Positions 23,121 to 60,605 of a stretch of DNA of 64,000 nucleotides are shown in pieces. The stretch is from Reclinomonas americana ATCC 50394. Its lineage: Eukaryota. The position numbers were made by a program, and so were the translations under genes. Location: NCBI GenBank assembly GCA_048213135.1, contig PS015010.1:1922001-1986000 (forward strand), written 5' to 3'. Each line of letters begins with the position of its first letter. Positions within the stretch are counted from its first letter, which is position 1. The notes below the pieces were generated by a model. It saw only the letters and a program-made list of their open reading frames with translations. It was not told the origin of the DNA and ran no database searches.

Positions 23121-24563
23121 TTAACCCAGGAAAGGCTTACCTTCTTTACTCAGTTCCCGCTTGATTCCCTGGAGTACATCGTACAGGTAGATCACCAGGC
23201 CATCGTCTTCTTCCGCAACAAGTATTTCCTTTGTACCGTTACTACCGGCGTGGCCGTTGCTGCTCATGGTTACCGGGTGCTGTTTTGTTCTGCGTCCCAC
23301 AGCTTTCAAACAGGCATAGTGCACCGCATTAATAATATTGCCGCCGGCCAGTTCATATCCTTTTACCAGGTCAGGAATATCGGCATATTCCCGTTCGGGT
23401 ATTTTGTTGTGATCACGGGGAGGCAGGTTCTTTTCCCATACAGCTTTTTGCGGGAATGAACTTTTCCAGATCATTGCTCTTTCGGCGGCGTCGGGGAACG
23501 GGAATTTGAGGATGGCATTGAACCGTCGCATGAAAGCATCATCAATATTGTTCTTCATATTCGTGGCCAGGATGATAAGGCCATTATAATTTTCGATACG
23601 CTGCAACAGGTACGACACTTCCTGGTTAGCATACTTATCATGCGCATCCCTTACATTGGTCCGTTTACCAAACAGCGCATCCGCCTCATCGAAAAACAAT
23701 ATCCATCCTTTATCTTCCGCTCTTGCAAAAAGCAATTCCAGGTTTTTCTCCGTTTCACCGATGTATTTCGATACGATCATCGACAAGTCGACTTTGTATA
23801 CATCCCTGCCGATTTCATTGCCCAGTAACCCGGCAGTGAGGGTTTTACCCGTACCCGGTGGACCATGAAACAGCGCCCGGAAGCCTTTTTTCAGCCTGTC
23901 CTGCATTCCCCATTTACTCATTAACTCCTCATTGTAATGCAGCCAGCTGGCGATCTCTCCTATCTGTTTCTGTAACTCGTCATTGATCACCAATGCATCC
24001 CATCCTCTTTTTTCCACGATATGCTGTGCAGGAAAATTGATACTGAAATGCGGAGGCGTTGGTTTTCCCAGCGTGAACGTATCTATATAATCCTGTGACA
24101 GAATAACACGTCCGCTCATGGCAGGTTCTCCTGCCGGTAATTCTTCCAGCCACGCGATCTTTTTCTGAGCAAACAAATGACGGGAACCAAACAGCTGCTG
24201 TATATCCATCCGCGATTCCAGTGTATTGCCGGAAAGCAGGAACAGTATGGTTTCACCCGTAGGCAGGAAGGTCCGGGAATTTTTCCCCCGCATGCCTCCC
24301 AGTTTGGGAAAATTGCCCGATTCCGGCAGGCGGAATTCAACTACCCTGTCAAACAGGTCGGGTTGCAAGTGCGGCACCAGGGCCACCAGCAGCAAAATGG
24401 CTTCATCTTTACTCAGTTGATGCTTAACGACAAAGTTTTTCAGTGGCAACGTCCACTCCTCCAGTTGCGGGATAACCGGCTCCGGCACCTGTTCTTCAGT
24501 AGGAAAATAATGCGACAGTTTATAGATGATCAATTCTTCGAGGTATTTGAATTCCCGGATCAT
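23121..24563 (-). CDS. eCIS AAA+ ATPase (Afp15/Pvc15-like)
   Basis: GPPGTGKT, VDLSMIVSKYIGETEKNL, LFFDEADALFGKR, DKYANQEVSYLLQR, DDAFMRRF; N-domain with LLVALVPH and PTGET. Confidence 0.93.
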   Translation of the reverse strand: MIREFKYLEELIIYKLSHYFPTEEQVPEPVIPQLEEWTLPLKNFVVKHQLSKDEAILLLVALVPHLQPDLFDRVVEFRLPESGNFPKLGGMRGKNSRTFLPTGETILFLLSGNTLESRMDIQQLFGSRHLFAQKKIAWLEELPAGEPAMSGRVILSQDYIDTFTLGKPTPPHFSINFPAQHIVEKRGWDALVINDELQKQIGEIASWLHYNEELMSKWGMQDRLKKGFRALFHGPPGTGKTLTAGLLGNEIGRDVYKVDLSMIVSKYIGETEKNLELLFARAEDKGWILFFDEADALFGKRTNVRDAHDKYANQEVSYLLQRIENYNGLIILATNMKNNIDDAFMRRFNAILKFPFPDAAERAMIWKSSFPQKAVWEKNLPPRDHNKIPEREYADIPDLVKGYELAGGNIINAVHYACLKAVGRRTKQHPVTMSSNGHAGSNGTKEILVAEEDDGLVIYLYDVLQGIKRELSKEGKPFLG

Positions 24564-24601
24564 GGTATCTTTTTTACTCGTTACAGAAATTATTTCGGCG
24601 C

Positions 24602-25291
24602 TTACTTATCATCGTTCTTCTTTTTCCCGGCGTGCCCCTGCTGCACCACATGTGTCAATTCATGCGCCAGCAGGTGTTTGCCCTCGCTGCTGCCGGGGTC
24701 ATATTTATGTTCATTGAAATACACATCACTGCCATGAGTAAATGCCTGTGCCGACAGTTCCTTGTTCATACTTACCGATTCCGCGTCGGTATGCACTTTC
24801 ACCTGGCTGAAGTCGGCATGAAAAGAATTCCCCATTTCGGCAAGTGTTGAAGAAGACAGCGATTCTCCTTTTCCCGAACTGTTCTGTATCCGGCTGCCCA
24901 GGGCCGGGGATGCCGTTTGACCACCACTGTCATTTTTCCGCTGCACTTCCGGCTTCTCCTGTATTTCCTTGTCGCGAAGCATACGGGCATCGTTGGTTCC
25001 CGCTTTTTCATCCTCTTTATCTGTAGCCAGCCTTTGAATACTGTTGTCTTCTTCTTTTTGCTGTATACCTGCAACACCCGACGCCTGGCTCACTACCTTA
25101 TCCGCCATCTGGTCGGCTTCTTTTTCATACGCGTCACCGGGCTGACCAATCTCCAGCTTGGTTTGGAAGAAGGCACCGTTCTCTTTCCTTGTTTCCTTAC
25201 TGAAAAAAGGCGAGCCCTGTTCTTCCTGCTCTTCCCGGTCGCTGTGCGCTTTACCCGGGTTCTGCGATTCGTAACTGCTGCTTCTCATCAT
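24602..25291 (-). CDS. Minimal DUF4157 (eCIS core, HExxH) protein without payload
   Basis: QTKLEIGQPGDAYEKEAD, DFSQVKVHTD, AQAFTHGSDVYF, LLAHELTHVVQQ; ends 10 aa after QQ. Confidence 0.88.
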   Translation of the reverse strand: MMRSSSYESQNPGKAHSDREEQEEQGSPFFSKETRKENGAFFQTKLEIGQPGDAYEKEADQMADKVVSQASGVAGIQQKEEDNSIQRLATDKEDEKAGTNDARMLRDKEIQEKPEVQRKNDSGGQTASPALGSRIQNSSGKGESLSSSTLAEMGNSFHADFSQVKVHTDAESVSMNKELSAQAFTHGSDVYFNEHKYDPGSSEGKHLLAHELTHVVQQGHAGKKKNDDK

Positions 25292-25320
25292 GTGTTCAGT
25301 TTTATGGTGGTCAATAATTT

Positions 25321-26094
25321 TTATTTAACGGTTTTTTCCACGAATTCCAATGCCAGGTTATAGTAGTCTTCTGCTCCGTGCGAATGTTTATCAAAGTTGA
25401 AGATATCGGTACCTGCTTCCTGCGCTTTGGCCAGTTGTATGTTGGAACGTATATGCGTGCGGAACACTTTATCACCAAAGGCAGTTTCCAGTTCCTGTGA
25501 TACATTCCTGTTCATGGTTCTGCGTTCGTCGTAGCGGGTAAGTACAAAACCAATAATGTCCAGTTTTTTATTGAGTTTACTTTTAATGTTATTGAAGTGC
25601 TGCATAAAACTCATCAGCCCTTTCATGGGCAGGAACTCGGCCTGCAGCGGCATGAGTACATAATCGCTGGCAACCAGCGCGTTCACCGTAAGCATACCTA
25701 CTGCGGGCGGGCAATCGATGAGGATATAATCATATTTTCCTTTCAGTGGTTCCAGCATCCAGGTCAGCATCTGTTCCCTGCCATACACACTTACCAGTTC
25801 CAGTTCGGCCCCTGCCAGTTCAATGGAGGAAGGCACAATAGCGAGACCGCTTGCTGTTGTTATTACCGCTTCGCGAAGATCCCCGCTTTCACCACTGATC
25901 TCTTTTTTCAATACCGAATACAGGTTCAATGCAGGTTCCTCGGCAATGCCCAGTGATTGCGACAGGTTGGCCTGCGGGTCGGCATCAACCAGCAAAACTG
26001 TCTTTCCCTGTTGTCGGAGAGCACCAGCCAGGTTAAGGGCTGTGGTGGTTTTACCCGAACCTCCTTTTTGTATGGCTATAGATACGACTGGCAT
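25321..26094 (-). CDS. ParA/Soj-family ATPase (no adjacent parB)
   Basis: Deviant Walker A QKGGSGKTT, DADPQANL, IDCPP, P-QAEF, basic DERR and IRSN residues. Confidence 0.93.
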   Translation of the reverse strand: MPVVSIAIQKGGSGKTTTALNLAGALRQQGKTVLLVDADPQANLSQSLGIAEEPALNLYSVLKKEISGESGDLREAVITTASGLAIVPSSIELAGAELELVSVYGREQMLTWMLEPLKGKYDYILIDCPPAVGMLTVNALVASDYVLMPLQAEFLPMKGLMSFMQHFNNIKSKLNKKLDIIGFVLTRYDERRTMNRNVSQELETAFGDKVFRTHIRSNIQLAKAQEAGTDIFNFDKHSHGAEDYYNLALEFVEKTVK

Positions 26095-26103: not shown

Positions 26104-27471
26104 TCAGGATTTATCGTTAATGTAAAAAGCAGCTTTCTCCCAGCTTTGTGTTCCGATGAAAGCGCCCAGTTTCTGCCCCAGTTCATTCCCTCTTTTAAAA
26201 TGTATGCCGCCATATACGCCCGACATACCGGCCTGCTCTGCCGCGTCTGTAAACGTTGGCCAGTCGAGTTTTACATCCACACAGGGCACATGGCAGCCCG
26301 GCTCTGTTTTTGAAGAACCTTTGGCAACGGTAAAGCAACCGCCGAATTCATCGCTTCCTGTAAAATGTTTCAGCACGGTTGCGGCGGCGCGGGCAAATGT
26401 ACTTTGAGCGGATACATGCTCAGGATGAGGCGGCGTTGGCAGGTAGGACTGCCATTGCTTTCCTTTGATCGTTTTTGTTCCCTTGCAGGGGCCTGCCCAT
26501 GATTGCACATCATCGTGCTCAAAGAGATAACGTATGGCCGATACAGGACGAACCGAATTGTAGTGATGTTTAGATTCCCAGCAGGCGATTGACGCGTCGA
26601 GCAACGCGTTGCTTAATGCAAAAAATAATTTGATGCAGGGTGTATTTCTTTTTTCGTGACGCAGTACATAGCGGGCAATCTCGCACCAATGACCGGGAGA
26701 AGTAACAGTACCCGGACCGTCGTACCAATATTCCGCGATCGTTTTCTGCTCATCGGTAAGGCAGGCACTGATGTCGAGTATCTCCTGTGCCTGTTCCCTG
26801 AAACCCGCGTCGTGCCTGTTGTATGGCGCTTCCGGCCTGAACTGCCAGTTGTGGTGAAGAGCGAAAGCCCTGACAAGGCCCCAGTGCGGCGTAAGGAATT
26901 CCTGCTGGCAGGCAAGCCCGGGTTTTACCTCTGTTTTTAAAGGCTGCCATTTGCTGATGTTGCGTATTGTGTCGGCCGTATTCACCGGCTGGTAACCCGT
27001 GTAATCGCTCCAGTACGGCATATGCAATGTTCCATAAGCGTTACTGCCATCACCGTTACGGTATTCAATTATACAGCGTGCCGACATATTGCCAATACCC
27101 GCAGGACGATGAATATCGAGTGAAGTATCGTGCGGATCATAACCCAGCCGGCACATAAAATCATGGAACATATTTTTATTTTCGGCGGGCAGTTTCAGGC
27201 AGAAAAGTTCTGCCAGTACACGATAAGCAGCATAGCTAAACGCTTTGCGCACATTTTCCTTACTGCAATGATCACCCTCTGCTTTGATGTACATGGCGGT
27301 TGTTGTGCTGGCAGCCCGGTCGTTGTATACGCTCCACGCATCATACATGGCGGTATGCACCATTGCGAGTGCCCGGGCGGCAATTGGTGCAGGGGTATGG
27401 GTGAGCCGGATGGCGTCGAGTGCCAGCTGGTTCCAGTGTATACTAATGGGCCGCGATGGATCGTATGACAT
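26104..27471 (-). CDS. Vanadium-dependent haloperoxidase/PAP2-fold protein with degenerate active site
   Basis: ARALAMVHTAMYDAW, FLTPHWG, WESKHHYNSVRP, PPHPEHVSAQS (for PxYPSGHS), MSGVYGGIHF (for SRxxGGIHF). Confidence 0.85.
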   Translation of the reverse strand: MSYDPSRPISIHWNQLALDAIRLTHTPAPIAARALAMVHTAMYDAWSVYNDRAASTTTAMYIKAEGDHCSKENVRKAFSYAAYRVLAELFCLKLPAENKNMFHDFMCRLGYDPHDTSLDIHRPAGIGNMSARCIIEYRNGDGSNAYGTLHMPYWSDYTGYQPVNTADTIRNISKWQPLKTEVKPGLACQQEFLTPHWGLVRAFALHHNWQFRPEAPYNRHDAGFREQAQEILDISACLTDEQKTIAEYWYDGPGTVTSPGHWCEIARYVLRHEKRNTPCIKLFFALSNALLDASIACWESKHHYNSVRPVSAIRYLFEHDDVQSWAGPCKGTKTIKGKQWQSYLPTPPHPEHVSAQSTFARAAATVLKHFTGSDEFGGCFTVAKGSSKTEPGCHVPCVDVKLDWPTFTDAAEQAGMSGVYGGIHFKRGNELGQKLGAFIGTQSWEKAAFYINDKS

Positions 27472-27484
27472 ATCAATGGTATTT

Positions 27485-27785
27485 TTATTTGTTATCAACA
27501 GGAAGCAACTTACCGTACCGGTTTATTTTAAGGTCATTCCGGGCCGAAGCTTCGGCTTCTTTTTTAGCAGCTTCTTTTTGGGGTCCTTCGGGAATATTAG
27601 AATAGATGTCGATATCGGGATCATTTTTCTTGTTGTAGTATATTCTGGCCCACGATTTCGCCCTCATCAGGAGGTATGCTTTTATTTTTTCGTCTACTTG
27701 TTCTGCCGTCATCGGTTTCTGATTATCCGTTGCTTCGCCCCAATGCTGGTCTCTCCAGAGTATTTCCGTTTTTCCGCCATTTTTT
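27485..27785 (-). pseudogene. Out-of-frame C-terminal tail of the upstream DUF4157 effector
   Basis: Removing one A from the A6 run at 27780-27785 joins ...GYHSISIIFY to KNGGKTEILWRDQHWG..., giving a 739-aa ORF that ends 13 bp before the next ATG. Confidence 0.7.
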
Positions 27786-29705
27786 ATAGAATATAATGGA
27801 GATGGAATGATAGCCATTTCCGAGCGAGAACAGGAAAGGATGAACGCCGTCCTCTTCTTTCTGCACAATGGCGTTCATTTCTCCGGCAATGGATGAACCC
27901 AGGGTAAGGTCGGAGTTGTTTTCTGGAATACTCATTTCTTTGGGGTAGGTCGCCGCGATCTGCCCGGTCACATTGATGAATTTCTTTTTCTTCATTTCAT
28001 CGATGGTACCGAAAGCCGTATCCTTCATATCGGAGGTATCGATGGTATTGATGCCATATAAGTTCTGCACACCCCTGTTGAAAGTACCGATGCAGGCGCC
28101 GGCACACGAAGAGGCAAACATATTATGACCCTGCAGTTTGGAAAATGAGTCCGGGTGTTTCACACGGTATTCCGCGATCAGCGCTTTCAGTTCCGCCAGT
28201 TTGGGATCCGATTTTTTAGTCATGGTCGTTTCACTGCCTTCCGGGAATATTGCGTTGAACTTGGTGAGTACCCAGGGTTCTGTGAAACTTGTGGCGGAAA
28301 CACTGATCTCGTACACATTCGTTTTCTTTTTATCGATGATCTTATCGACAGGAGCTCCTGTCGTGCCGAGGATATCGATCCTCGCCAGGTCTTGTATCAT
28401 CGTGTTCTGGTTCACTTCACCCCTTACATTGATCACCCTGCCTTTACCGGTTTTTACGGGGCTGTCGATGAGTTCCTGCGACATGGCTTTCTCTGCCGGC
28501 GCTGGTGTTGAACAGCCCGAACACCGTTGCAGCCTGAGTTTTGATTTCATGGCCGGCCGGCTCTCTTTCGTCATTTCACCCGTATTCATTCCGTGCATGC
28601 GGGCGACAGCATCAACAGCAGAATTATCCGCATCCTCTTCCAGCACATTCGTTTGGCTTTGATCGGCAGTTTTGGTTTGCTCCTGCGTAGCGCCACCCTG
28701 CTGCTGCAAAGTATGTGCAAGTTCATGGGCCATTAAAGCATCCCCTACAGGGTCACCGGGCTTGTATTCGCCACTGGCAAACGCAACATGGTTACCTACG
28801 GTAAAGGCGCGGGCATTCATGCCGGCGGATAACTGAGCGGCATTACTGTCCGTATGTATCTCAACTCCTGTAAAACCCGTTCCGAATGCATCTTCCATCT
28901 TCGACCTTGTTCCTGCTTCGAGCGGGCTTCCTTTTCCGAGACTTTGCATTACCGCCTGGGGTGATTGGGCCTGGGCGGTTGCACCCGGTTCGGATTTAAA
29001 GAACATATTGCCAATGCCGGACGCCACATCACTGATCATAGAACCGATACCTGCCGCAGCGCCGGTGAACAGGCTTGAGACTGATGACATGTCGCCACCG
29101 TTCTGCACCCATTGAAGCGCTGCCGTGTATACGCGTACCTTCATGGCCTGGATGAGTCCTTCTGCATTTGTCGCCAGGGCCGCTCCTGGCGCATACCGAA
29201 TGACGAGCGCCTGTATCTGTGCTGCACTGCTGTTCTGGTGTTTTTCAAAAGAAGCACGTATATACGGACAACTGTCTGCTGAAAAAGGTGTGCCCGACAA
29301 AGCCTGGTTTACGGTGGTGCAAACTTCTTCTTTCAGCCGGTTCAGGAATTCCGTTTTGCGCATCTGTCCTTTTTCCGGCGTTTCGGTATCTTCAACAATA
29401 CAGTGCGCTCCTGCAGGTGCAGCCGCAACTGGTCCCGGGGTATCCTGTGCAGCGGGTGGAGTTGGTACATCAGCCGTTCCTTCTTCTGCTCTTTGAATAC
29501 CCGGGGCATCCTTTTTTTGTACCTCTTCGTCTTCCTTCTCACACTGATCGCATTTCCTCTGAACCGTCACCGGTTTGTTTACCGTTCCGGAATTTTTCCC
29601 TCCGCCATTACCGGTAAAAAAAGAATGTTGCCCTCCCTGTTTATTAAAGAAGGGAACATGATCCTGCGCATCCTCGGTTAGTATGTTATTTTTCCTGGCT
29701 TTCAT
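27723..29705 (-). CDS. DUF4157 effector with putative papain-like C-terminal payload (apparently frameshifted)
   Basis: VQRKCDQC; helical domain shared with the 32914 gene; ALMAHELAHTLQQ; LEEDAD; LRLQRC; payload with ACIGTFN and GYHS. Confidence 0.8.
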   Translation of the reverse strand: MKARKNNILTEDAQDHVPFFNKQGGQHSFFTGNGGGKNSGTVNKPVTVQRKCDQCEKEDEEVQKKDAPGIQRAEEGTADVPTPPAAQDTPGPVAAAPAGAHCIVEDTETPEKGQMRKTEFLNRLKEEVCTTVNQALSGTPFSADSCPYIRASFEKHQNSSAAQIQALVIRYAPGAALATNAEGLIQAMKVRVYTAALQWVQNGGDMSSVSSLFTGAAAGIGSMISDVASGIGNMFFKSEPGATAQAQSPQAVMQSLGKGSPLEAGTRSKMEDAFGTGFTGVEIHTDSNAAQLSAGMNARAFTVGNHVAFASGEYKPGDPVGDALMAHELAHTLQQQGGATQEQTKTADQSQTNVLEEDADNSAVDAVARMHGMNTGEMTKESRPAMKSKLRLQRCSGCSTPAPAEKAMSQELIDSPVKTGKGRVINVRGEVNQNTMIQDLARIDILGTTGAPVDKIIDKKKTNVYEISVSATSFTEPWVLTKFNAIFPEGSETTMTKKSDPKLAELKALIAEYRVKHPDSFSKLQGHNMFASSCAGACIGTFNRGVQNLYGINTIDTSDMKDTAFGTIDEMKKKKFINVTGQIAATYPKEMSIPENNSDLTLGSSIAGEMNAIVQKEEDGVHPFLFSLGNGYHSISIIFYKKWRKNGNTLERPALGRSNG

Positions 29706-30841
29706 AACATGGGCTGATCATTTCTTTTACTGAAAAGAATATGAAAGACGCCGTTGTGTTTTTCAACAAGCTCGTATTGATCTCCATGGCTTTTAAGCAG
29801 GCCGATCACACCAGCCATTTTTTCCGCCAGCGGCCGGTCCATAATGTTCTTTTTCCTGGATGAAATGGTATAGAATATTTGCTCCGTTTCTCCATGTTGC
29901 TGTCCGCATGAAACAGAAAAACCTTTCTTCGTCGTGTACACATTTACATTCTTATCATCGTTGGCAGTTTTACCGGCTGTTTCCAGCAACTCTAATCCTT
30001 CTGCCAACTGACGTATATGTAATGGGAGCAACAATTCTTTTTGCCCATTTTTCCTGAACCGGTAAATACTCACGGCCGCAGCAAGCAGCATTACCACCAG
30101 GATGACCGAGTGCCAGCCATATGCAGGCAGCCAGCCCATCCTGCTCATGGCGAGTGTAACAGCGGTGAGCAGGATGGTTGTCCATTGTGCTTCCGATAAC
30201 CCGTTCCACAACGGCCGTTCGGGATCGCCGCGAAAGTATTCGAGTACAAAACGCATTAACCCGTAAATAACCGTATATATGATGAGCACCGTACCGGGCT
30301 GCACCTGCATGAAGAGCAAAGCAACCCCGGTAAAAACAGTGACGAACACATAGGCCGATTCAATAAGCTGCACCGGTAAAAGCGGAATATTTTTATAGAA
30401 CCAGGTAAACCCGGCATCAACATGCTGCTGCCCGTATACCACCCCATGCCGGTGAGGGCGGCCATGGCAGCAACCCACCGAATAACAACCGATACGGCCG
30501 AACGCCAGGAAGACGCCGATACCCAGCAAAGTAATATCCAGGTAAGGTAAAACAGGTTGTCCCATAGCATACAGTACCAGTGCGCAACTGAGCATGATAC
30601 CGATCTCGTGGTGATAATAAACGATGGTTTCTTCGCCTGTGATCCACCTGGCGGCGAAAGCGAGGATAAAGAAAACAGCGGCGGCGGTGCCCGCCATGGC
30701 CAGGATGACCAAAGGATTAAGTTGTAATTGTGTACACAGGAATACACCCAACCCCAGGCCGAGGATATAGCCCAGCACGCCGAAGAAATGGAAGGAATGT
30801 ACCCGGGCATTCAAAATACGGATATACAAACGAGGTTTCAT
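29702..30841 (-). CDS. Prolipoprotein diacylglyceryl transferase (Lgt)-like membrane protein with C-terminal soluble extension
   Basis: Multiple TM helices; FGRIGCYSVGCCHG, LPVQLIES and YGLMRFVLEYFRGD match Lgt-family motifs. Stop overlaps the next start codon. Confidence 0.8.
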   Translation of the reverse strand: MKPRLYIRILNARVHSFHFFGVLGYILGLGLGVFLCTQLQLNPLVILAMAGTAAAVFFILAFAARWITGEETIVYYHHEIGIMLSCALVLYAMGQPVLPYLDITLLGIGVFLAFGRIGCYSVGCCHGRPHRHGVVYGQQHVDAGFTWFYKNIPLLPVQLIESAYVFVTVFTGVALLFMQVQPGTVLIIYTVIYGLMRFVLEYFRGDPERPLWNGLSEAQWTTILLTAVTLAMSRMGWLPAYGWHSVILVVMLLAAAVSIYRFRKNGQKELLLPLHIRQLAEGLELLETAGKTANDDKNVNVYTTKKGFSVSCGQQHGETEQIFYTISSRKKNIMDRPLAEKMAGVIGLLKSHGDQYELVEKHNGVFHILFSKRNDQPML

Positions 30842-51127: not shown

Positions 51128-51421
51128 TTAACCACCGATCTGCACTGTAGGCAGGCCGGCTATTATTACACCTCCGTGTGAAGTAAGGTCACCCTGCCGG
51201 GCCGCGGGTTTCCCACCTATAAATACAGTGGATGAACCTTTCGCGATCGTATCGGGAGGGCCTACGCATACCAGCATATCACCCACCACTGCAGCCGGCA
51301 GGCCTCCTATCAGAACGGTAGCCACGCATGGGCCGGATACGGGTCCGCCTACATGCGGCACGGGTCCCGGGTTCACCATCGGGCAGGTATGCATATCGCT
51401 TAGTCTTGCTGCTGAAGGCAT
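51128..51421 (-). CDS. PAAR spike-tip protein (Afp10-like)
   Basis: AARLSDMHTCP, PHVGGP, GKPAARQGD, HGG motifs. Confidence 0.95.
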   Translation of the reverse strand: MPSAARLSDMHTCPMVNPGPVPHVGGPVSGPCVATVLIGGLPAAVVGDMLVCVGPPDTIAKGSSTVFIGGKPAARQGDLTSHGGVIIAGLPTVQIGG

Positions 51422-53203: not shown

Positions 53204-53914
53204 TCAGGCTTCGTTTTTATCGAATGGCGGGAAATACAGGTCAGTTCCGGGTTTCACCTGCCGCAGCGTGGTGAGCCCATTGGCTTTTCCTACTTCCATA
53301 AAATATTTTGGATCCTTATAGATTGAATTGGTGAGCAGGTCGAGCCGGTCACTCTGTTTAAACTTCCGGTAATGGGTAAGGTCAGGGGAAGAAGCTTTCG
53401 ATTCTGCCAGCAGTACTTCCCTTGATTTGTGGGCCAGGAAGGTAGCGCTTACTTTTACCCGCAACGGAGACCCATCGGGTTCAAACAAATTATAATTGAG
53501 TTCAAGATTGGAAAGCACACCTTTGAAATTCATGTCGGTACCCCAGAATACGATCAGGAAACGCGGCCGGTGAATATTGCCATCAAAATTGTAACAGCAG
53601 TTCTTCAGGTCCTCTACCTGGTCGTGTACTTTTCTTTTGATATAGTCCTTCTTATCACCACCATAACCTTCTACAATATGGGTTCCGTCAAGAATGAATT
53701 CCAGTCTCAGCTCTTCGGGTTCGGTCGATTTATATTTCACTTCAGCACCGGGTTTGCCGTGCCCGCCTGAACTGTCGGCATTCACCTTGAAGGTTTGCGT
53801 AAAAGATTCAGGATTGATGGGTGTAGCAAATTCCTTGCTCTTATCCTCTCCCGAAAAATCCCTGTTCTCGAACGAACGGATCACCAGCTTTTCCAGTTTT
53901 TTTCTATCGCTCAT
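53204..53914 (-). CDS. CIS tube initiator / LysM-like protein (Afp7-like)
   Basis: INPES, HRPRFLIVFWG, LFEPDGSPLR, SSPDLTH, DRLD..IY.D..Y..V..ANGL motifs. Confidence 0.88.
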   Translation of the reverse strand: MSDRKKLEKLVIRSFENRDFSGEDKSKEFATPINPESFTQTFKVNADSSGGHGKPGAEVKYKSTEPEELRLEFILDGTHIVEGYGGDKKDYIKRKVHDQVEDLKNCCYNFDGNIHRPRFLIVFWGTDMNFKGVLSNLELNYNLFEPDGSPLRVKVSATFLAHKSREVLLAESKASSPDLTHYRKFKQSDRLDLLTNSIYKDPKYFMEVGKANGLTTLRQVKPGTDLYFPPFDKNEA

Positions 53915-54091: not shown

Positions 54092-54622
54092 TTACGTATT
54101 GAAAGGATTCACTTCAGAAGACACCAGGCGGTTGTAATTCAGCTCAAGCGTTTCGATCAGCACTTCCCCTCTTTCCGCGTTGAGTTCGCCAATCTTCCAG
54201 CTTCGCGGCCATACATTGTTCACGGTCCAGGTCATCAGCGGCCGCTGGTCATCTTCACCGAGCAACTGGATGATAACGGTATCAATCACTTTGAAAGGTG
54301 AAGTCTCCTCAGGTTTTACCGGTGGTTTTTTCTTGGCTTCCAGTTCGAAAGGCTGATCTTCAAACGTGTTTTTCAACCAGGCCGTAACAGCCGAAGTATT
54401 GGGACCAAGCAGGCCACGCTTCAGCACCAGCGGACCGAATTTGCGCCGGGTAGGCAGCACATGCTCGAAGCGGTTCTCCCCTCCTTCCTTTATCGTTTCA
54501 AATTCCAGGGTGGAATCCAGGCCGGTTACGGACTGGAACTTTACATCCACAGAATCCCTGTCGTTCGGCGAAAAGTGAACGGAAAAGTGGAAGCCTACCA
54601 CCTGGTAAAATTTATCGCTCAT
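54092..54622 (-). CDS. Phage tail tube protein (gp19-like, Afp5)
   Basis: VGFHFSV, FQSVTGL, EGGENRF, LVLKRGL, IETLEL motifs. Confidence 0.92.
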   Translation of the reverse strand: MSDKFYQVVGFHFSVHFSPNDRDSVDVKFQSVTGLDSTLEFETIKEGGENRFEHVLPTRRKFGPLVLKRGLLGPNTSAVTAWLKNTFEDQPFELEAKKKPPVKPEETSPFKVIDTVIIQLLGEDDQRPLMTWTVNNVWPRSWKIGELNAERGEVLIETLELNYNRLVSSEVNPFNT

Positions 54623-54633
54623 AGGACGGCGTT

Positions 54634-55095
54634 TTATTTGGCGTCAACAATGGACAATCCCTCATGCACCAGTTCCATGGTTTCAATGGCCACTTCATTG
54701 GCATCGGCCTTGAGGTCGGTGGACTGTATTTTAGAAGGCCATGCTTTGGTGAGCGCCCAGGTAATAATGGGCTGGTGTTCCTCATCCAGCAGGCGTATGG
54801 TTACGTCTCTCCTGAATTTGGCCTTGCCTTCCTGGAACATCATGGTATTGCGCCATTGCTCGAAGAACTGGAAGTCGCCGAGGAAGGTGCCGCGTTTCAG
54901 TGTGATATTGCTGTACTTGGTGAGACCAGGTTGTTTGGTCTTGTTATAGGTAGGACTGCTTCCTTCCCTGTATTCGATGACCTCTGTTTCGAAGTCAAGC
55001 CCGCTCACTTCCGTAAAACCAATACGGGTGCCTCCCCAGTCGAGCTGGAAATGGAATTTCGGGAGCGGGTAATTCTTTTTGGGATCGTCTGCCAT
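54634..55095 (-). CDS. Major tail tube protein (gp19-like, Afp1)
   Basis: YPLPKFHF, FTEVSGL, EYREG, PGLTKYSNITLKRG, AWPSK, IETMEL motifs. Confidence 0.95.
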   Translation of the reverse strand: MADDPKKNYPLPKFHFQLDWGGTRIGFTEVSGLDFETEVIEYREGSSPTYNKTKQPGLTKYSNITLKRGTFLGDFQFFEQWRNTMMFQEGKAKFRRDVTIRLLDEEHQPIITWALTKAWPSKIQSTDLKADANEVAIETMELVHEGLSIVDAK

Positions 55096-55147: not shown

Positions 55148-56098
55148 TTATTTACACCTTGTTTTGGGATCCACTTCTTTGATCGCCAGTTCAAGACTTT
55201 GTTTGCAGGCCTGCAGTGATTCTTTCTTTTTATTCAGCGCCAGCAGGTCCTTGGCCAGTTGTTTGGCATCGGCATCGTCTTTCTGGTATTTGTCGTAAGT
55301 GTCCGCATAGTAAGGATCATTGCAGATGGGCATTTTCAGCATCGGTTTCAGTTTGCAATCTTCATCAGCGCAATCATCACCGCTGTTCTGGATACCCTGT
55401 TTCACTTCAGGCTTTTTCTTTTCCTGTTCGCCGCAGGCTTCATCGCAGTTGAGTACATCTTTCCATTGGTTCACTACCGTTTGCAGACCATAGTCAGGAC
55501 CGATATTAAGATCCACTTTTTCCGCAAGTGCCAGCGCCGCTATCACCAATTTGAGCAGCTCATCCCTGGAAGCTATTGCCGCTGCGAGTTTTACGCCATA
55601 GTCCTCGATGAGTTTCATCAATCCAGCGCCAGGGGTCAATCCCGGGCTGTTGAGGCATTTGATGCAATCGAGCAGGGCATCATATTTTTCCTTGAGTTTG
55701 TCGAGTTGCAGGTAATACTCCCTGATCATACAGAAAAGTATTTTCACTGCATCAACAGTGTACTGGGTATTGATGCCTACTTTCTCCACCTGGCAGCAGA
55801 GTATGTCGAGCTGATCGCAGATGGCTTTTTGCAGTTCACCGGCTTTTGTCAGTTCGTCGTACCATTTTTTGAATTGGTCGCGGCGCTCAGATACGTAAGT
55901 AAATTCCGCTGATTTTTGCCGGGCCTCTTCTTCAGCCTGCTGGTAGGCTTTGTTCACTTCTTTCAGTTCCGCTGTCCAGTTGTCGTAACAGCAGTCAACA
56001 GGCGGATTCTCTCCATCCGGATTGGCGCAGCAATCCTTTATTTTTTTATCCCATTCGGCATTGAGGGGTTCATAAATATCTTGTAACATGATTTTCAT
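55148..56098 (-). CDS. Cys-rich coiled-coil hypothetical protein, candidate tube-lumen cargo
   Basis: 316 aa, 17 Cys including three CC pairs, heptad-like helices; located between sheath and tube. Confidence 0.6.
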   Translation of the reverse strand: MKIMLQDIYEPLNAEWDKKIKDCCANPDGENPPVDCCYDNWTAELKEVNKAYQQAEEEARQKSAEFTYVSERRDQFKKWYDELTKAGELQKAICDQLDILCCQVEKVGINTQYTVDAVKILFCMIREYYLQLDKLKEKYDALLDCIKCLNSPGLTPGAGLMKLIEDYGVKLAAAIASRDELLKLVIAALALAEKVDLNIGPDYGLQTVVNQWKDVLNCDEACGEQEKKKPEVKQGIQNSGDDCADEDCKLKPMLKMPICNDPYYADTYDKYQKDDADAKQLAKDLLALNKKKESLQACKQSLELAIKEVDPKTRCK

Positions 56099-56114: not shown

Positions 56115-57155
56115 TTAATCCGCCTGGCTGGGGTTATCGTTACAACCGCAGTCGTCGCCACCGCAGAAGGTCTGTTTCACATCGCCGCATATCTCGCAAA
56201 TTTTGCATTCGCAATCGTGCAGCCTGGGTTTACAGTTGTCTTCTTCGTTGGAAACACATCCGCATTTCGGACAGCACAGGTACCTGGTGGTATCATACAG
56301 GGCTTCAAAATTGCTGCGTGAAGTGTAAAGCGTGGCAACAGCTTTCGCTTTATCCTGCACTGATTTCACCAGCGATTCCTGCAGTTTTTTCAGATCGGAT
56401 TCCCTTGTTTTCATCACATCCTGCAAATGGGTATCAAATGCTTTTGACTTTTCCCCGAAATTTTTCTGGAGCTGATCCAGTGTGCCGATATTGGAGAATA
56501 CCTGTATGCCGATTATCTCCGACGATGACCGGAAGATGGAGTTGATGTCCACATCCAACCCTTTCTTCGGCATGCAGATCAGTTCGCAGATCGTTTTATC
56601 GATGTCCTTGCATTTGTCAGGATAATCTTTGGGTGGTTCACCCGGCCCTTCATCACCACATTTGGCAGGCGGCTTACCGGTGAGTATGGTCCATTCCGAC
56701 TGGTAGCAACTGTCTGTTTTACTGCCATCCAGTGCACAGGCTGCATTGCGCAGGTCATTCAGTTTTCCTTTGGCGGCCTTTACTGCTTTAAATACATCTT
56801 TCAGTTTTGTTGACAGGTCCGTTCCCCATTTGATGTATTCGCCTACATTGGTTTTGATCGATTCCGTGGTTTGCATGAGTTCGGTTCCCAGGATGATCTC
56901 TGTATTGCGGTAACGCTGGTAGTTACCTTCGGTCCATACAAACATGCATTTTTTACGTTTGTACAGGATGTTTTCGCCATTGTAAGCCTGCTCTGCTTTG
57001 CCCACTTCCCCGGAAGCGACATAAACGGCATTGCAGTAAGCCTGCCTTTCGGTATTGATGGCTTTCTGTGCAGGGTAATTGGTTTCCACGCATTCATGGG
57101 CATGGCAACCGCAATCCTTCTCTCTTTGTTCAGCCTTTATTGATGATATTGACAT
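56115..57155 (-). CDS. Cys-rich coiled-coil hypothetical protein, candidate tube-lumen cargo
   Basis: 346 aa, 23 Cys, of which 12 are in the last ~55 aa; located between sheath and tube. Confidence 0.6.
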   Translation of the reverse strand: MSISSIKAEQREKDCGCHAHECVETNYPAQKAINTERQAYCNAVYVASGEVGKAEQAYNGENILYKRKKCMFVWTEGNYQRYRNTEIILGTELMQTTESIKTNVGEYIKWGTDLSTKLKDVFKAVKAAKGKLNDLRNAACALDGSKTDSCYQSEWTILTGKPPAKCGDEGPGEPPKDYPDKCKDIDKTICELICMPKKGLDVDINSIFRSSSEIIGIQVFSNIGTLDQLQKNFGEKSKAFDTHLQDVMKTRESDLKKLQESLVKSVQDKAKAVATLYTSRSNFEALYDTTRYLCCPKCGCVSNEEDNCKPRLHDCECKICEICGDVKQTFCGGDDCGCNDNPSQAD

Positions 57156-57181: not shown

Positions 57182-58579
57182 TTATGACTCGCTCAGCATT
57201 TTGTGCATGAAACGCAGGATGATGAATTCAGCAGGACGAACAACAGCCATACCGATCTCCACGATCATACGGCCTTCCCATATGTCCTGCTCTGTCATGG
57301 TTTCACCAAGACCCACATGAACAAAGAAGGCTTCTTTGGTGGAAGCGCCCATCAACGCCCCGGCCTTCCATTGCTGCGTGAGGTAATTCTCGATCATTGA
57401 TTTTACCCTTACCCAGGTATTGCGGTCGTTGGGTTCAAACACAAACTGCTCCGTCGCGTTCTTGATCGATTCTTCGGCCATGTTGAAGAACCTGCGCACT
57501 GGTACATAGCGCCATTCATTGTCGTTGCCCGCCAGGGTACGGGCGCCCCAGATGATGGCAGGACCGCGGCCCGGGAAAGAACGGATGACATTAATGGATT
57601 TACCGGAAGTAACATCCACATTCAGTTCTGCCTGTTGCTTGCCGGTAATGATGATCTCTGGTTTTACCGCGTAATCGATACCCACATTCGCGGGGGCTTT
57701 CCAAACACCGCGGGTATTGTCTACTGTAGCATACTGGCCTACAACGCCGGATGAGGCAGGTAATACGAGTTCAATATTGGTAATGGCATTCTTAGCCATA
57801 AAATAATAAGCGTTGTTCTTGGTCTTCAGTTCCGTGAGTGTGGTAGCTCCGGCAACACCATTGATCTTTACCTGCCCCTCGTCTGCATATACATAATCAA
57901 GACGGGTATGGATGCGGGGGTAATACACTGCACCATACTTGGCGGTGTCGATAGTGCCAAAATCGAAATTGCGCAACACTTCCACATTGTTCACGGTCGT
58001 GTCGGGATCCATCCATACGTCCATCACCGCAAAACGATCTTTCAGGTCGGCACACTGGTCAAGCGCTTCCTTGTACAAAGCATAATAGTTGCCTGAAGCG
58101 CTCAGGTTCAGACCATCGGGGAAAAGGATAAGGGTTACCTCGTTCACTTTGGCTACTTCTTCCAGGCCTTTTGTAAGGTCACCGTCCATGATCAACCCAC
58201 CGGTATCTGTATAATTTCCTACCGATGTAATGTAGCAGGGGCCGCCGCCGTTGATGAAGAACAACTGCAGCGAATAGTACATGAGGAATTTTGAAGCTGT
58301 TGCCGGATTGGCCTTACCCTGCACTTCTATGCGGGAAGGATTGGTCAGGTTGAAAGTAACTTCCAGGCTGACTTCTGGCAATGCGCTGCCATAGTATTGT
58401 TCATACTCCAGCATAGAGCTGATGCGGTGCGGCTTCAGCAGCAGGTCGCCGTCTTCTTTCAGCTTTGCTTTTTCCGTATAACCGATAAAAGCAGGAATGG
58501 CTGTTTCCACTGAAGCAATGGAAGGGGGCAGCTTGGGAATTTCTTCGATATACACCCCCGGGGTTTTGTATTCTGGCAT
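57182..58579 (-). CDS. Contractile tail sheath protein
   Basis: YKTPGVYIEEI, TAIPAFIGYT, FFINGGG, RGVWKAPAN, IWGARTL, WRYVPVRR, FVFEPN, AVVRPAEFI motifs. Confidence 0.97.
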   Translation of the reverse strand: MPEYKTPGVYIEEIPKLPPSIASVETAIPAFIGYTEKAKLKEDGDLLLKPHRISSMLEYEQYYGSALPEVSLEVTFNLTNPSRIEVQGKANPATASKFLMYYSLQLFFINGGGPCYITSVGNYTDTGGLIMDGDLTKGLEEVAKVNEVTLILFPDGLNLSASGNYYALYKEALDQCADLKDRFAVMDVWMDPDTTVNNVEVLRNFDFGTIDTAKYGAVYYPRIHTRLDYVYADEGQVKINGVAGATTLTELKTKNNAYYFMAKNAITNIELVLPASSGVVGQYATVDNTRGVWKAPANVGIDYAVKPEIIITGKQQAELNVDVTSGKSINVIRSFPGRGPAIIWGARTLAGNDNEWRYVPVRRFFNMAEESIKNATEQFVFEPNDRNTWVRVKSMIENYLTQQWKAGALMGASTKEAFFVHVGLGETMTEQDIWEGRMIVEIGMAVVRPAEFIILRFMHKMLSES

Positions 58580-58638
58580 GACGTAAGTTTTAATTTTTAT
58601 GTATGAATATTTTTATTGTGATTGGTGTATGATCGTAT

Positions 58639-59964
58639 CTATGGCCCCAGTGGGAACATGTCGGATTCAGGAACCATGATGTCGGCAAAAACACGGGCAC
58701 CTTCTTTCTTCAGTTCCGCGAATAATTTAGGATTGGGCAGGTAGTCCAGTGTGGTATCCGCCTTCCTGAAAAGTACCGGCGTATAACTGAGTACCCTTGG
58801 GATCTTGGTAAAAGGTTTCCCGCTGTTATCGAGCAGGAATTCCGGGAACAACCCATTCTTGATGTCTTTACCCTTGTCGTTGATATACCGCCAGAAAGGC
58901 ACACGGCTCCTGATCCACAATTCAAATACCGGGTGCGGCGTATTCACCGTACGGTCGGCATTGAGACGGGTGATGATCCTGTTGTTGCCGGGTTCGGTAA
59001 GCTGGAAGGCGGCATTCGTTACCCTGTTCTTTACCTGAACGGCACCCCATACATCGCGGATATTTGTTTCCAGGTCACGCAGGAAAACAACTTTATGTTT
59101 CCTGTTGAATCCCCCGTTGCCAGTAACTTCCAGCGTATACAGGAGGTCGTTACCCGGCGTTGTTTCAGGCAATGTTCTCAGTTTGCGCAGATCGAAAGAA
59201 ACCGGGCGGCGGGTAAATACACCTGTAGCCGTACGGGCATTGACCGTTTCGATAACCGCATTGGTACTGTCTTTCAAAACAAAACTGGCATCGTTTACAT
59301 TGTCCTCTTTACGGAACGTGTAATAGAAATCCGGTTTCAGCAGCATGCGGTCTGTTTCACCTGCATAGCCACCCGCAGGCAGGGTAAGCCATTGCGCCGT
59401 ATCTGTCTCATCCGTATAAAAAGAACGGATGGTACTGGCACCAAACCTCGCAAGCTCTCCCTGCTCGTAAGGATAGGCACCATTGAAAGGAGCAATAGCT
59501 TCCGCCAGCCATGGGAATGTTCTGCCTCCCTGAAGATTTTCATTGGTGAAATAATACGCAGCAGAAAGCTGGCTCACCATTCTTGAGCCGGTGACAAGAT
59601 CAATGTCCTTTCCTTTGCGCATCATCAGTACAGGCAGACTGAATGCTTCGGGTAACGGGGCTACGGGTATAAAGCCGGTGAGTGATCCCGGTAACGCAAC
59701 CGGCTTCACCGCGATAGCCACCTTAAATCCCGAATAAGTTTTCAGCAATCGTAACCGGTGATTGTTATACAATCCGGTTGCTTCGCCGGGAATTTTCCAG
59801 TCCAGGTCGGCCCCGATGTTTCTTTCATTACGGGCAAACCGGTCCTGGAGAAATGCTGTGCGCCCAGGTGCCGGCAAATCAAAAACCACCGCACCGTCAT
59901 AATTGGTACAGTAGAATTCATGCAGCAGGCGAACTTCAAATAATATTTTATAGATGGTACTCAT
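58639..59964 (-). CDS. Conserved eCIS protein, candidate cap adaptor
   Basis: YKILFEVRLLHEFY N-terminus, WRY and LPNP C-terminal motifs; coupled to the cap gene by a TGATG overlap. Confidence 0.6.
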   Translation of the reverse strand: MSTIYKILFEVRLLHEFYCTNYDGAVVFDLPAPGRTAFLQDRFARNERNIGADLDWKIPGEATGLYNNHRLRLLKTYSGFKVAIAVKPVALPGSLTGFIPVAPLPEAFSLPVLMMRKGKDIDLVTGSRMVSQLSAAYYFTNENLQGGRTFPWLAEAIAPFNGAYPYEQGELARFGASTIRSFYTDETDTAQWLTLPAGGYAGETDRMLLKPDFYYTFRKEDNVNDASFVLKDSTNAVIETVNARTATGVFTRRPVSFDLRKLRTLPETTPGNDLLYTLEVTGNGGFNRKHKVVFLRDLETNIRDVWGAVQVKNRVTNAAFQLTEPGNNRIITRLNADRTVNTPHPVFELWIRSRVPFWRYINDKGKDIKNGLFPEFLLDNSGKPFTKIPRVLSYTPVLFRKADTTLDYLPNPKLFAELKKEGARVFADIMVPESDMFPLGP

Positions 59965-60605
59965 CAGCAATCGTCGGATACTTTGGTGAGATGTGTTTCT
60001 ATTTCTTCGATCAGCGGCACTTCCCTTACCTGTTTACGTCCGGTTATGGCCACCAGCCTCAGTTTGTACATCACGGAGGGCATCTGTTTTCCGCCCAGCG
60101 TGCCCCACAGGTGATTGATCTGTTCGAACGTAAGGGTATAGAGTTCCACTTTTATGAACAGCTTATTCAGTTCATCATCACTGAATTTGGTAAGGTCGGC
60201 ACCGGAAGAAGTGGCGAGTGAAAAAGAATTTTTGCCCTGGAAGAATTTGATCACGTGCGATAATTTCTTAAGCGACTCCAGGTAATTCTCATTCACATTG
60301 GCCTTGGTTGTTGAATTGCAGGAAGAGATGAGCAGGTAAAGATTAAGATAAGCCGGCGGATTCTCGTATACGCCTGTATTACCCGACCCGCGCCTGACGG
60401 CGGAAATATTTTTGAGTGTACTCTCTTCTTCTATATTGGCAAGTGTGAGTACGATCTTATCGTCGAAATTGATACCGCTGCCCGAGGATTCGAACAGGCC
60501 GATATTATCTATGATCACAATGTCGTCGGCAGTATTATAACCTTCCGTTACTTTCAGATAGGTCACCAGTTCTGTTCGAATCAGAGATATAGCTTCATTG
60601 ATCAT
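59964..60605 (-). CDS. DUF4255 / Pvc16-like cap (tail terminator) protein
   Basis: LANIEEE, PPAYLNLYLL, FFQ, EQINHLWGTLGGKQMPSVMYKLR motifs; first gene of the cluster. Confidence 0.9.
   Translation of the reverse strand: MINEAISLIRTELVTYLKVTEGYNTADDIVIIDNIGLFESSGSGINFDDKIVLTLANIEEESTLKNISAVRRGSGNTGVYENPPAYLNLYLLISSCNSTTKANVNENYLESLKKLSHVIKFFQGKNSFSLATSSGADLTKFSDDELNKLFIKVELYTLTFEQINHLWGTLGGKQMPSVMYKLRLVAITGRKQVREVPLIEEIETHLTKVSDDC

Follow-up and report, generated by a model that had tools for sequence, protein, structure and literature searches.

The subject of this study is a contractile injection system (CIS) locus in the window, by which is meant the whole 64,000-nucleotide stretch of contig PS015010.1 (assembly GCA_048213135.1, Reclinomonas americana ATCC 50394) that was analysed. 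Its closest described counterparts are the thylakoid-anchored CIS of Anabaena (tCIS; 7b5h; PMC8894136) and AlgoCIS of Algoriphagus machipongonensis (7aeb; PMC8894135), and what is said of published work here is limited to the available parts of each source. The tCIS has DUF4157 proteins as presumed cargo, an extended Cis12, and a Cis13 fibre with a C-terminal transmembrane helix that is encoded between Cis11 and Cis12. AlgoCIS, from the same phylum as the probable host of the present locus, is a released system of subtype Ib, whose parts include a long Alg11 'cage', the fibre Alg19 and a cap adaptor. Its DUF4157 proteins, Cgo1/2, represent a cargo or effector class located in the tube lumen (PMC8894135); they consist of a disordered N-region, the DUF4157 domain and a variable C-domain, and the AAA+ ATPase Alg15 is required for loading (10.64898/2026.05.27.728243). 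A gene related to that of prolipoprotein diacylglyceryl transferase (Lgt), a ParA gene or a vanadium-haloperoxidase-like (VHPO-like) gene is neither mentioned in the available text on tCIS (PMC8894136) nor described in that on AlgoCIS (PMC8894135, 10.64898/2026.05.27.728243).

The locus was read on the minus strand from 60605 to 23121 and comprises 24 genes plus one overlapping open reading frame (ORF; 27485-27868), numbered together g1 to g25. Intergenic gaps are -8 to 59 bp throughout, the sole exception being 177 bp between g7 and g8. Pfam was searched with all 25 ORFs and, at E<=1, with nine gene pieces, NCBIfam with 10 proteins, and PHROGs with 10 unexplained ORFs. The parts named by Pfam were a Pvc16_N cap, the sheath, two gp19 tubes, CIS_tube, VgrG, PAAR, gp25 and CIS_TMP, and further four eCIS_core/DUF4157 proteins, LGT, DUF6851 with VCPO_2nd, ParA (AAA_31) and an AAA ATPase. 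By Pfam and PDB matches, the core set of a CIS of the antifeeding prophage/Photorhabdus virulence cassette (Afp/PVC) type is complete in this single locus, with sheath through cap, Afp11, Afp12 and AAA+ ATPase. The locus is a chromosomal Afp/PVC-type CIS, belonging to lineage I of the extracellular CIS (eCIS) superfamily. An earlier note on this DNA had described a complete contractile tail gene set in one same-strand run with short gaps and about 13 kb between tape measure and ATPase, and gene coordinates and Pfam agree with it, the interval (24602-37816) measuring 13.2 kb. The locus is flanked by a his operon, a chondroitinase-B-like protein with a type IX secretion system (T9SS) sorting tail and unassigned ORFs. 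The T9SS sorting domain of the chondroitinase-B-like neighbour indicates a Bacteroidota origin, and the host is probably a Chitinophagales-like Bacteroidota bacterium. As none of the flanking genes has a counterpart adjoining the CIS of relatives, the island borders at 23121 and 60605, as first proposed, are correct.

The best solved matches of the two giant baseplate proteins were those of tCIS. PDB searches with phmmer matched g12 to All3317 of tCIS (7b5h; E 1.5e-161), AlgoCIS (7aeb; 4.5e-95), Pvc11 (1.3e-35) and Afp11 (2.3e-20), and g13 to All3315 of tCIS (E 2e-154), Alg12 (1.4e-99) and Pvc12 (8.6e-25). The DUF4157 proteins are a further point of likeness to tCIS, and the extended Cis12 may be another; the present locus differs from tCIS in having no gene between those for Cis11 and Cis12, in a Cis12 that is about 900 aa longer, and in a host without thylakoids. 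With AlgoCIS, the weaker match, it shares a long protein of the Alg11 kind, DUF4157 cargo of the Cgo1/2 type and a probable Alg15-like AAA+ loader, whereas the Alg19 fibre, the cap adaptor and release are described for AlgoCIS. The core parts of AFP and PVC (Afp1-16) are the same, but the present locus has no recognisable Afp13 fibre, follows another gene order, has DUF4157-type cargo and encodes far larger baseplate proteins. What is new is a CIS-specific, apparently inverted Lgt paralogue that is paired with an invariant Cys at a module boundary of the cargo; ParA in the operon is a second lead. No publication was found in which CIS are connected to Lgt, to the lipidation of cargo, to haloperoxidases or to positioning by ParA, and the supplement of PMC8213781 and dbeCIS may list such domains.

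A CIS sub-lineage with an accessory block

Species-representative genomes were scanned with an alignment of the family of g19, the Lgt-like protein of the window. This gave 42 loci, which were fetched with flanks of 10 kb and compared with the window proteins by tblastn; taxa are given as named in database records. Of these loci, 22 had an AAA ATPase, 15 ParA, 14 the tape measure and 9 the VHPO-like gene, and the gene order was constant: Cis12, tape measure, DUF4157 genes, Lgt-like, (VHPO-like), ParA, (small DUF4157), AAA. In one metagenome-assembled genome (L043) the cap, tube, Cis7, VgrG and ParA genes were split over adjoining frames, probably by sequencing errors in the assembly. The ParA loci came from Saprospiraceae, Chitinophagaceae and other Chitinophagales, Cyclobacteriaceae, Flavobacteriaceae (Aquimarina, Aggregatimonas), Prolixibacteraceae and Lewinellaceae. 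From the cap to Cis12, the order was the same in all five genomes compared (Saprospiraceae, Chitinophagaceae, Flavobacteriaceae); g2 was present in all five, g4 and g5 together in three, g4 alone in one and g5 alone in one. Identity in the shared loci was 50-77% for ParA, 44-70% for the VHPO-like protein and 27-47% for the tape measure. In Aquimarina mytili a second CIS lies directly beside the first, back to back (L047/L048, L050/L051). Its Cis11 and Cis12 genes are short and 1.5 kb apart, so that a fibre gene could be accommodated between them, and the Lgt-like, VHPO-like and ParA genes are all missing from it. The presence of the block therefore follows the type of CIS rather than the host. 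The locus belongs to a distinct, conserved CIS sub-lineage and is not a chance neighbourhood. Hallmarks of the sub-lineage are the giant size of Cis11 and Cis12, a pair of Cys-rich helical proteins encoded between sheath and tube, the lack of a separate fibre gene in the Cis11-Cis12 interval, and a conserved block from tape measure to AAA+ ATPase. The distinct CIS subtype proposed in the earlier note was thus recovered, since the same gene order occurs in several Bacteroidota families and the accessory genes recur there together with the CIS.

The ParA protein of the block, g23, has the deviant Walker A motif KGGSGKTT with the signature Lys and is similar to ParA/Soj over its full length; its PDB matches were ParA (8ray; E 1.6e-46), Thermus Soj (4.1e-41) and McdA (E 1.5e-17). 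It differs from ParA/Soj and McdA by its setting in a CIS operon in which no ParB or other partner was found. ParA-type ATPases space or position other large cargoes. A plasmid remnant was considered as the source of this gene and was rejected, the flanks being chromosomal and the operon position fixed in 15 loci. The suggestion that the machine is positioned inside the cell was overstated, since its only basis is that the locus encodes ParA and a membrane protein.

The motifs of vanadium haloperoxidases and PAP2 proteins are K-x6-RP, S-G-H and S-R-x5-H. The VHPO-like protein of the window, g22, is similar over its full length to bacterial vanadium haloperoxidases (9l8x, E 7.3e-62; also 9ptr and NapH1/NapH3), and it keeps K..RP and the His of the third motif. 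It differs from them in being predicted cytoplasmic and CIS-linked, and in the changes of SGH to SAQ and of SR to SG, by which two active-site residues are lost. Among the CIS-linked orthologues SGH is kept in 8 of 9 and the Arg of SR....H in 9 of 9. The family is probably enzymatic, and its motifs suggest that the window copy is likely inactive. Hence the label 'degenerate haloperoxidase' suits the window copy (SAQ, SG...H) and not the family, since most relatives have an intact copy. ParA and the VHPO-like gene were found in the Bacteroidota loci of this sub-lineage only, and in none of 80 metagenome loci that were fetched separately with a cargo alignment.

The Lgt-like protein and the cargo cysteine motif

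Database searching with g19 gave 787 relatives at E<=0.001 among 8000 scored, and 120 among the matches listed were 44-94% identical, all of them PF01790. DUF4157 or CIS genes lay within the flanks of 35 of the 42 Lgt-like loci. In three others (L013, L016, L021) there was no CIS match within 10 kb but a tube-gene match about 28-31 kb away, on the same contig and strand in L021 and on what was assumed to be the same contig in L013 and L016. With these three, 38 of the 42 loci are CIS-linked; the remaining four are on contigs of 2.6-13 kb. Beyond Bacteroidota, the loci came from Desulfobacteraceae, Anaerolineae, Acidobacteriota, Isosphaeraceae, a cyanobacterium and Gemmatimonadaceae. None of 300 other sampled Bacteroidota genomes carried the Lgt-like gene at E<=1e-30, and DUF4157 was found in 43 of them (E<=0.001). 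Given this absence and the CIS linkage, the gene is rare and restricted to CIS. All five carrier genomes checked also hold a better-scoring Lgt (E 1e-35 to 1e-62, vs 1e-16 to 1e-20 for the CIS-linked copy), so that the latter is a second copy, and g19 scored far under the NCBIfam equivalog cut-offs for Lgt (73.3 bits vs 334 for NF000778; 46.3 vs 118.9 for TIGR00544). The Lgt-like gene, which occurs in several phyla, is thus paralogous to that of prolipoprotein diacylglyceryl transferase and specific to CIS.

An immunity function of the Lgt-like gene was rejected, as the gene is conserved across phyla and its catalytic-type motifs are invariant. The small genes that adjoin it are not one family, and thus no conserved small partner was found. 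In L014, L018, L019 and L020 a conserved protein of about 205-226 aa with several CxxC/CC clusters is encoded directly after the Lgt-like gene; this protein is absent from the window. In L013, L016 and L021 the gene adjoins large fusion genes of glycosyltransferase family 2 and a methyltransferase. In L013 and L021 it is also close to a DUF6519 gene, representing a different CIS architecture; DUF6519 serves as an eCIS marker domain, according to the available text of PMC12923769.

The AlphaFold model of g19, built from 22 sequences, had a mean predicted local distance difference test (pLDDT) score of 85.7 and presented eight long helices followed by an alpha/beta domain (residues ~265-379). 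E. coli Lgt (5azb/5azc) was the sole clear structural match, with a Foldseek E of 2.6e-5 and, by VIA, a Z of 16.7 over 229 aligned residues at a root-mean-square deviation of 3.9 (next best Z 6.6). Residues 1-243 of the model align with residues 9-286 of E. coli Lgt; since the alignment ends there, helix 242-264 is an extra eighth helix. A profile search of the PDB with the family alignment (A1) gave no match. The C-terminal domain had weak matches to 2qzi (Z 6.2) and to the type III secretion system chaperone InvB (Foldseek E 0.2), and no fold could be named. Invariant in the family are the motifs GR.GC..VGCCHG, YYHHE and YG..RF..E..RGDPER, with the residues R116, R197, E201, R204 and H77/H78. 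The likeness to E. coli Lgt (PMC4728403) extends from the fold to the GR.G... and Y/F-G..RF..E..R..D-like motifs, and the Arg motifs resemble, by eye and as motifs, those around the catalytic Arg143 and Arg239 of E. coli; H77/H78 may likewise correspond to His103 of its HGGL motif. Compared with the parts of E. coli Lgt described in the available text, g19 adds the eighth helix, the C-terminal domain and the Cys-rich GC..VGCCHG, and has no periplasmic head domain.

In E. coli Lgt the catalytic residues are in the periplasmic half and the cytoplasmic face is positively charged (available text of PMC4728403). The charge bias of the Lgt-like family is reversed. Over 22 members the N-tail had a mean K+R count of 3.3, loop 4-5 one of 3.4 and loop 6-7 one of 2.2, compared with a total of 1.0 in the four short loops of the opposite side; the N-tail has no acidic residues, and loops 4-5 and 6-7 are those that carry the conserved motifs. 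The same reversed pattern was observed in 15 further members, 8 of them from other phyla. Six housekeeping Lgts (four of the same five genomes) presented the canonical pattern, in which the N-tail is acidic and K/R residues are enriched in alternate loops and in the tail. By the positive-inside rule, the reversed loop charges place both ends of the protein, its C-terminal domain and its catalytic half, as a prediction, in the cytoplasm. The active site of the Lgt-like protein is accordingly predicted from its loop charges to face the cytoplasm, unlike the canonical periplasmic site.

All four DUF4157 proteins of the window (g15, g17, g20, g24) carry the DUF4157 domain with HExxH, g24 stopping at the end of the domain, and g17 and g20 have in common an N-terminal module of 400 residues with 50% identity. 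This module ends, about 60 residues past HExxH, in ...GLRLQRC in g17 and ...KLRLQRC in g20. A strict motif, G[LVI]x[LIM][QRSN][RSM]C, which was derived post hoc from the first data set, was present in 27 of 72 DUF4157 ORFs of the Lgt-baited loci and in none of 610 other ORFs of at least 150 aa. In 13 loci, which represent at least five phyla, the motif-bearing cargo gene immediately precedes the Lgt-like gene, and in 3 it immediately follows it. Among 20 aligned motif proteins (A2) the Cys (Cys394 of g17) was invariant and was followed by complete divergence; the motif therefore marks the junction of a delivery module and a variable toxin domain. The junction motif was absent from all 29 DUF4157 genes taken from Bacteroidota genomes without the Lgt-like enzyme.

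The 80 metagenome loci served as an independent set, and were counted as motif+/Lgt+, motif+/Lgt-, motif-/Lgt+ and motif-/Lgt-. With the strict pattern, which was fixed before this test, the counts were 15, 4, 2 and 59, and with a broader four-residue pattern, which was widened after the second set had been viewed, they were 18, 7, 0 and 55; the Fisher p-values (7e-11 and 1.4e-12, respectively) overstate independence because the loci are related. Among the misses of the strict pattern were variants such as GFRLQRC and GYQLQRC. A complex prediction of the Lgt-like protein with residues 340-410 of g17, run without controls, gave a score of 0.00 and is evidence neither way. The notion that the system processes its cargo, raised in the earlier note, has gained a concrete candidate in the Lgt-like enzyme and the cargo Cys motif with which it co-occurs.

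Readings of the Lgt-like protein, ParA and the cysteine motif

The best overall explanation, with an estimated probability of about 0.55, is a CIS sub-lineage in which an inverted Lgt paralogue acts on the cargo Cys and ParA provides positioning. The AAA+ ATPase would feed DUF4157 cargo into the tube, as published work suggests. The Lgt-like enzyme, with its active site towards the cytoplasm, would act on the Cys of the junction motif, the simplest reaction being the transfer of a diacylglyceryl or another lipid group to it, and the effector domain might then be tethered to the membrane in the producer, lipidated upon delivery, or both. As weaker steps of the same scheme, ParA may space or position the assemblies in the cytoplasm, and the VHPO/PAP2-fold protein, probably catalytically dead in the present strain, may serve the same sub-lineage. 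A more specific version is possible, though less likely than not: the inverted paralogue would lipidate the junction Cys, the DUF4157 metallopeptidase would cut before this Cys in the part of signal peptidase II, the lipidated toxin would be injected, and in the Bacteroidota sub-lineage ParA would also space the machines. If this is true, the N-terminally lipidated toxin would insert into target membranes after injection. The preparation of CIS cargo is poorly understood, and an Lgt relative with a single invariant Cys offers a concrete hypothesis; if it is true, this would be, to our knowledge, the first Lgt-fold enzyme acting on cytoplasmic substrates. The fixed place of ParA inside a CIS operon suggests active positioning of the machine, so far undescribed. 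Both the Lgt-like and the ParA points bear on the loading of engineered cargo into CIS particles.

A number of points weigh against an inverted, cargo-modifying Lgt paralogue with ParA positioning, starting with the derivation of the two patterns and the relatedness of the loci given above. The motif and the enzyme could simply be co-inherited. With the broader pattern, 7 motif-positive metagenome loci had no Lgt-like gene in the flank, and L116 is probably an eighth; most of these loci had short or one-sided flanks, those of L116 and L165 being two-sided, and the motif of L165 resembles a chance match. Conversely, 7 of the 35 Lgt loci with a DUF4157 gene lacked the motif in the fetched flank, and L013, L016 and L021 had neither DUF4157 cargo of the window type nor a convincing motif within 10 kb (L016 has one DUF4157-like ORF, which is motif-less). 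In the window itself, g15 and g24 are without the junction motif. L-Q-R-C departs from the canonical lipobox, in which the -1 and -2 residues are small, and it is not evident that a lipidated cargo could pass so narrow a tube. The topology of the Lgt-like protein and the lipidation of the cargo are both inferred. As to the other genes, no ParB-like family was present in the Pfam results for the locus and no partner of ParA was identified; most ParA loci, though not L002 or L019, have a g24-like gene after that for ParA; and the active-site losses of g22 count here as well.

Rather than an enzyme, the Lgt-like protein might be a membrane dock whose C-terminal domain tethers cargo or baseplate, in a tCIS- or type VI secretion system-like anchoring or as a loading platform. 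The junction Cys would then stay unlipidated and serve for recognition or as a zinc 'cysteine switch' of the nearby HExxH, which lies 50-90 residues before the motif in the same chain. In favour of a dock, no other protein of the locus is a polytopic membrane protein; besides its extra helix, the Lgt-like protein carries a soluble C-terminal alpha/beta domain that lies on the side of the N-terminus; and among solved structures the baseplate proteins are closest to those of the membrane-anchored tCIS. The Arg, Cys and His motifs of the Lgt core are, however, invariant across phyla, which fits an active enzyme better than an anchor; DUF4157 proteins of Lgt-less loci manage without the Cys motif (0/29), and a transmembrane fibre like Cis13 is lacking. 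A dock is considered rather unlikely.

The locus could also be an ordinary released eCIS, in which the extra genes are effectors, immunity genes or passengers and ParA, the VHPO-like gene and the Lgt-like gene were inherited along one lineage. The block does contain variable genes (g16, g18 and other small neighbours), the window copy of the VHPO-like gene is degenerate, and the limitation of ParA and the VHPO-like gene to Bacteroidota loci is in line with inheritance of this kind. Fibre-less loci are common too. No fibre, holin or endolysin family was found in the ORFs of the locus by Pfam, NCBIfam or PHROGs, as the earlier note had reported; g12 and g13 are 9 bp apart, no ORF fits between g12 and g13 or between g13 and g14, and the sole lysis-like signal was two sub-threshold CHAP matches in g15 (E 0.0011 and E 0.016). 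Such an absence is, contrary to that note, usual in eCIS loci rather than a special trait: in the available parts of the sources, afp13 is missing from many validated eCIS loci (PMC8213781, Table 1), fibres are unidentified in most eCIS operons (PMC12923769), and the eCIS core set as listed excludes lysis genes (PMC6899500). An ordinary eCIS with passengers is nevertheless unlikely, as ParA and the VHPO-like protein exceed the tape measure in conservation and keep their position, and as the Lgt-like gene is CIS-linked in two CIS architectures and several phyla and absent from the 300 sampled genomes.

A canonical, outward-facing Lgt-like protein that acts in the periplasm, for example by lipidating immunity lipoproteins such as g16 or by weakening the envelope for release, would agree with the periplasmic-side catalysis of canonical Lgt (available text of PMC4728403), the lipoprotein-like signal of g16 and the lack of a holin or endolysin among the locus ORFs, but is very unlikely in view of charges that are reversed relative to the housekeeping Lgt of the same genomes, a housekeeping Lgt already in all five genomes checked, and lipoprotein-like neighbours that are unconserved where the cytoplasmic cargo motif is conserved.

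Cargo genes, structural genes and expression

The coordinates of all features are given in Table 1. The four DUF4157 proteins had been listed in the accessory block by the earlier note; they are not unusual accessories and belong to a known cargo/effector class (available text of PMC8894135 and of the PROCIS preprint, 10.64898/2026.05.27.728243) and, by analogy with it, would consist of a loading region, DUF4157 and a variable toxin domain. The ATPase g25 is probably the cargo loader, a role assigned by likeness to Alg15. In g15, the largest cargo protein, the N-terminal part contains the motif QxKCxxCE four times; the protein also has two weakly CHAP-like stretches, internal repeats and HELTH at residue 560. 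The start of g16 is 3 bp past the end of g15; no homologue of g16 was found in related loci, and no family match in Pfam, NCBIfam or PHROGs. From its position and signal g16 may be an immunity protein for g15, and the pair could represent a cell-wall-targeting effector and its periplasmic immunity protein.

The start of g20 overlaps the end of g19 by 4 bp. At position 27780, in an A-run, one base was missing in all four comparison runs, including a near-identical DNA run. Without this base g20 reads into the frame of g21, and g21 is therefore probably the displaced C-terminal end of g20, the window having a frameshift or an assembly error at 27780. The motif [IV]Q[RAK]KCxxCE[EKQ]EE is repeated in the disordered N-terminal regions of 37 of the 72 DUF4157 ORFs of Lgt loci, including g15, g17 and g20, and also occurred in 7 of 29 controls; it is therefore general to DUF4157 cargo and untied to the Lgt-like enzyme.

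Table 1. Coordinates of the features of the CIS locus in the window.
Feature	Coordinates	Strand	Length (aa)	Description	Evidence
g1	59964..60605	-	213	cap / tail terminator (Afp16-like)	Pvc16_N E 9.2e-30; 42-50% identity, same place, 5 relatives
g2	58639..59970	-	443	lineage protein, cap-sheath interval	orthologues 26-45% identical, 5 relatives
g3	57182..58579	-	465	sheath	Phage_sheath_1C E 9.9e-15; identity 59-87% in 5 genomes
g4	56115..57155	-	346	helical Cys-rich protein, 23 Cys	sequence
g5	55148..56098	-	316	helical Cys-rich protein, 17 Cys	sequence
g6	54634..55095	-	153	inner tube	Phage_T4_gp19 E 1.1e-44
g7	54092..54622	-	176	second tube protein	Phage_T4_gp19 E 5.3e-32
g8	53204..53914	-	236	tube initiator (Afp7-like)	CIS_tube E 2e-46
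g9	51427..53202	-	591	VgrG spike	Phage_base_V E 1.2e-18; Phage_GPD E 3.1e-13
g10	51128..51421	-	97	PAAR tip	PAAR_motif E 1.4e-26
g11	50689..51135	-	148	gp25-like sheath initiator	GPW_gp25 E 6.7e-23
g12	46022..50671	-	1549	giant Afp11/Cis11 baseplate protein	PDB phmmer; Baseplate_J weak Pfam match
g13	39332..46012	-	2226	giant Afp12/Cis12 baseplate protein	PDB phmmer
g14	37844..39319	-	491	tape measure	CIS_TMP E 1.7e-99
g15	34301..37816	-	1171	DUF4157 cargo	eCIS_core E 9.1e-31; CHAP E 0.0011, C-terminal CHAP E 0.016
g16	32954..34297	-	447	lipoprotein-like signal (MRYCLFLVFLFSTSHSC...)	sequence
g17	31364..32914	-	516	DUF4157 cargo, junction motif SGLRLQRC (Cys394)	eCIS_core E 3.7e-28
g18	30856..31341	-	161	helical, not conserved in relatives	no Pfam, NCBIfam or PHROGs family
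g19	29702..30841	-	379	Lgt-like integral membrane enzyme (putative)	Pfam LGT E 1.1e-18
g20	27723..29705	-	660 as read	DUF4157 cargo, junction motif SKLRLQRC	eCIS_core E 2.6e-28
g21	27485..27868	-	127	ORF	frame g20 would enter minus extra base at 27780
g22	26104..27498	-	464	vanadium-haloperoxidase/PAP2-fold protein, no signal peptide	DUF6851 E 4.2e-38; VCPO_2nd E 7.5e-29
g23	25321..26094	-	257	ParA/Soj-type ATPase	AAA_31 E 5.8e-54
g24	24602..25291	-	229	small DUF4157 protein, no Cys	eCIS_core E 9.6e-30
g25	23121..24563	-		AAA+ ATPase (Afp15/Alg15-like)	AAA E 3e-27
hairpin	23068..23095	.		between convergent genes	10-pair stem, 7 GC pairs

Among the structural proteins, a hydrophobic segment was present in the PAAR protein only. 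The match of g13 to All3315 consists of three stretches, the best being residues 6-495. For residues 520-2226 no Pfam domain was found even at E<=1, bar one chance-level match, which leaves ~1700 aa past the conserved N-terminal part without a recognised domain. No Pfam, NCBIfam, PHROG or PDB sequence match was found for g2, and its AlphaFold model (6 sequences; pLDDT 50.9) was unusable, so that no fold search was made from it. The Cys-rich pair g4 and g5 in the sheath-tube interval is kept in relatives (15-24 Cys each) and has no known family. For g4, four orthologues with 15-24 Cys each have 6 invariant Cys columns, and there was no family match (Pfam, NCBIfam, PHROGs) or PDB sequence match. 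For g5, there was no PDB sequence match and no known family in NCBIfam or PHROGs; an atlas search led to a Bacteroidota cluster without a name, at a score of 0.82 that makes it no more than a lead, and helical look-alikes had a template-modelling score below 0.5. For g2, g4, g5, g16, g18 and the flanking ORFs, what NCBIfam and PHROGs gave was matches of the coiled-coil type at chance level. The ~1700 residues of Cis12 without a recognised domain, g2, g4 and g5 could carry binding functions.

Promoter and terminator scans were at chance level, with models that do not cover Bacteroidota promoters. In two RNA libraries of one metatranscriptome study (X16, X17), contigs of ~90-95% identity, in pieces of at most 7.7 kb, covered 23063-42898; they give a weak hint of expression of the locus and prove neither transcription nor a single transcript. 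The RNA contigs break at 23063-23091, at the hairpin, which is a strong one, and a DNA-like run reads on there. The hairpin is probably the end of the transcription unit, the contig breaks being only a weak hint of this. Beyond it, the 17036-23012 region encodes the chondroitinase-B-like T9SS protein, of 1078 aa, and a 903-aa signal-peptide protein without a family, both of which are outside the CIS of relatives.

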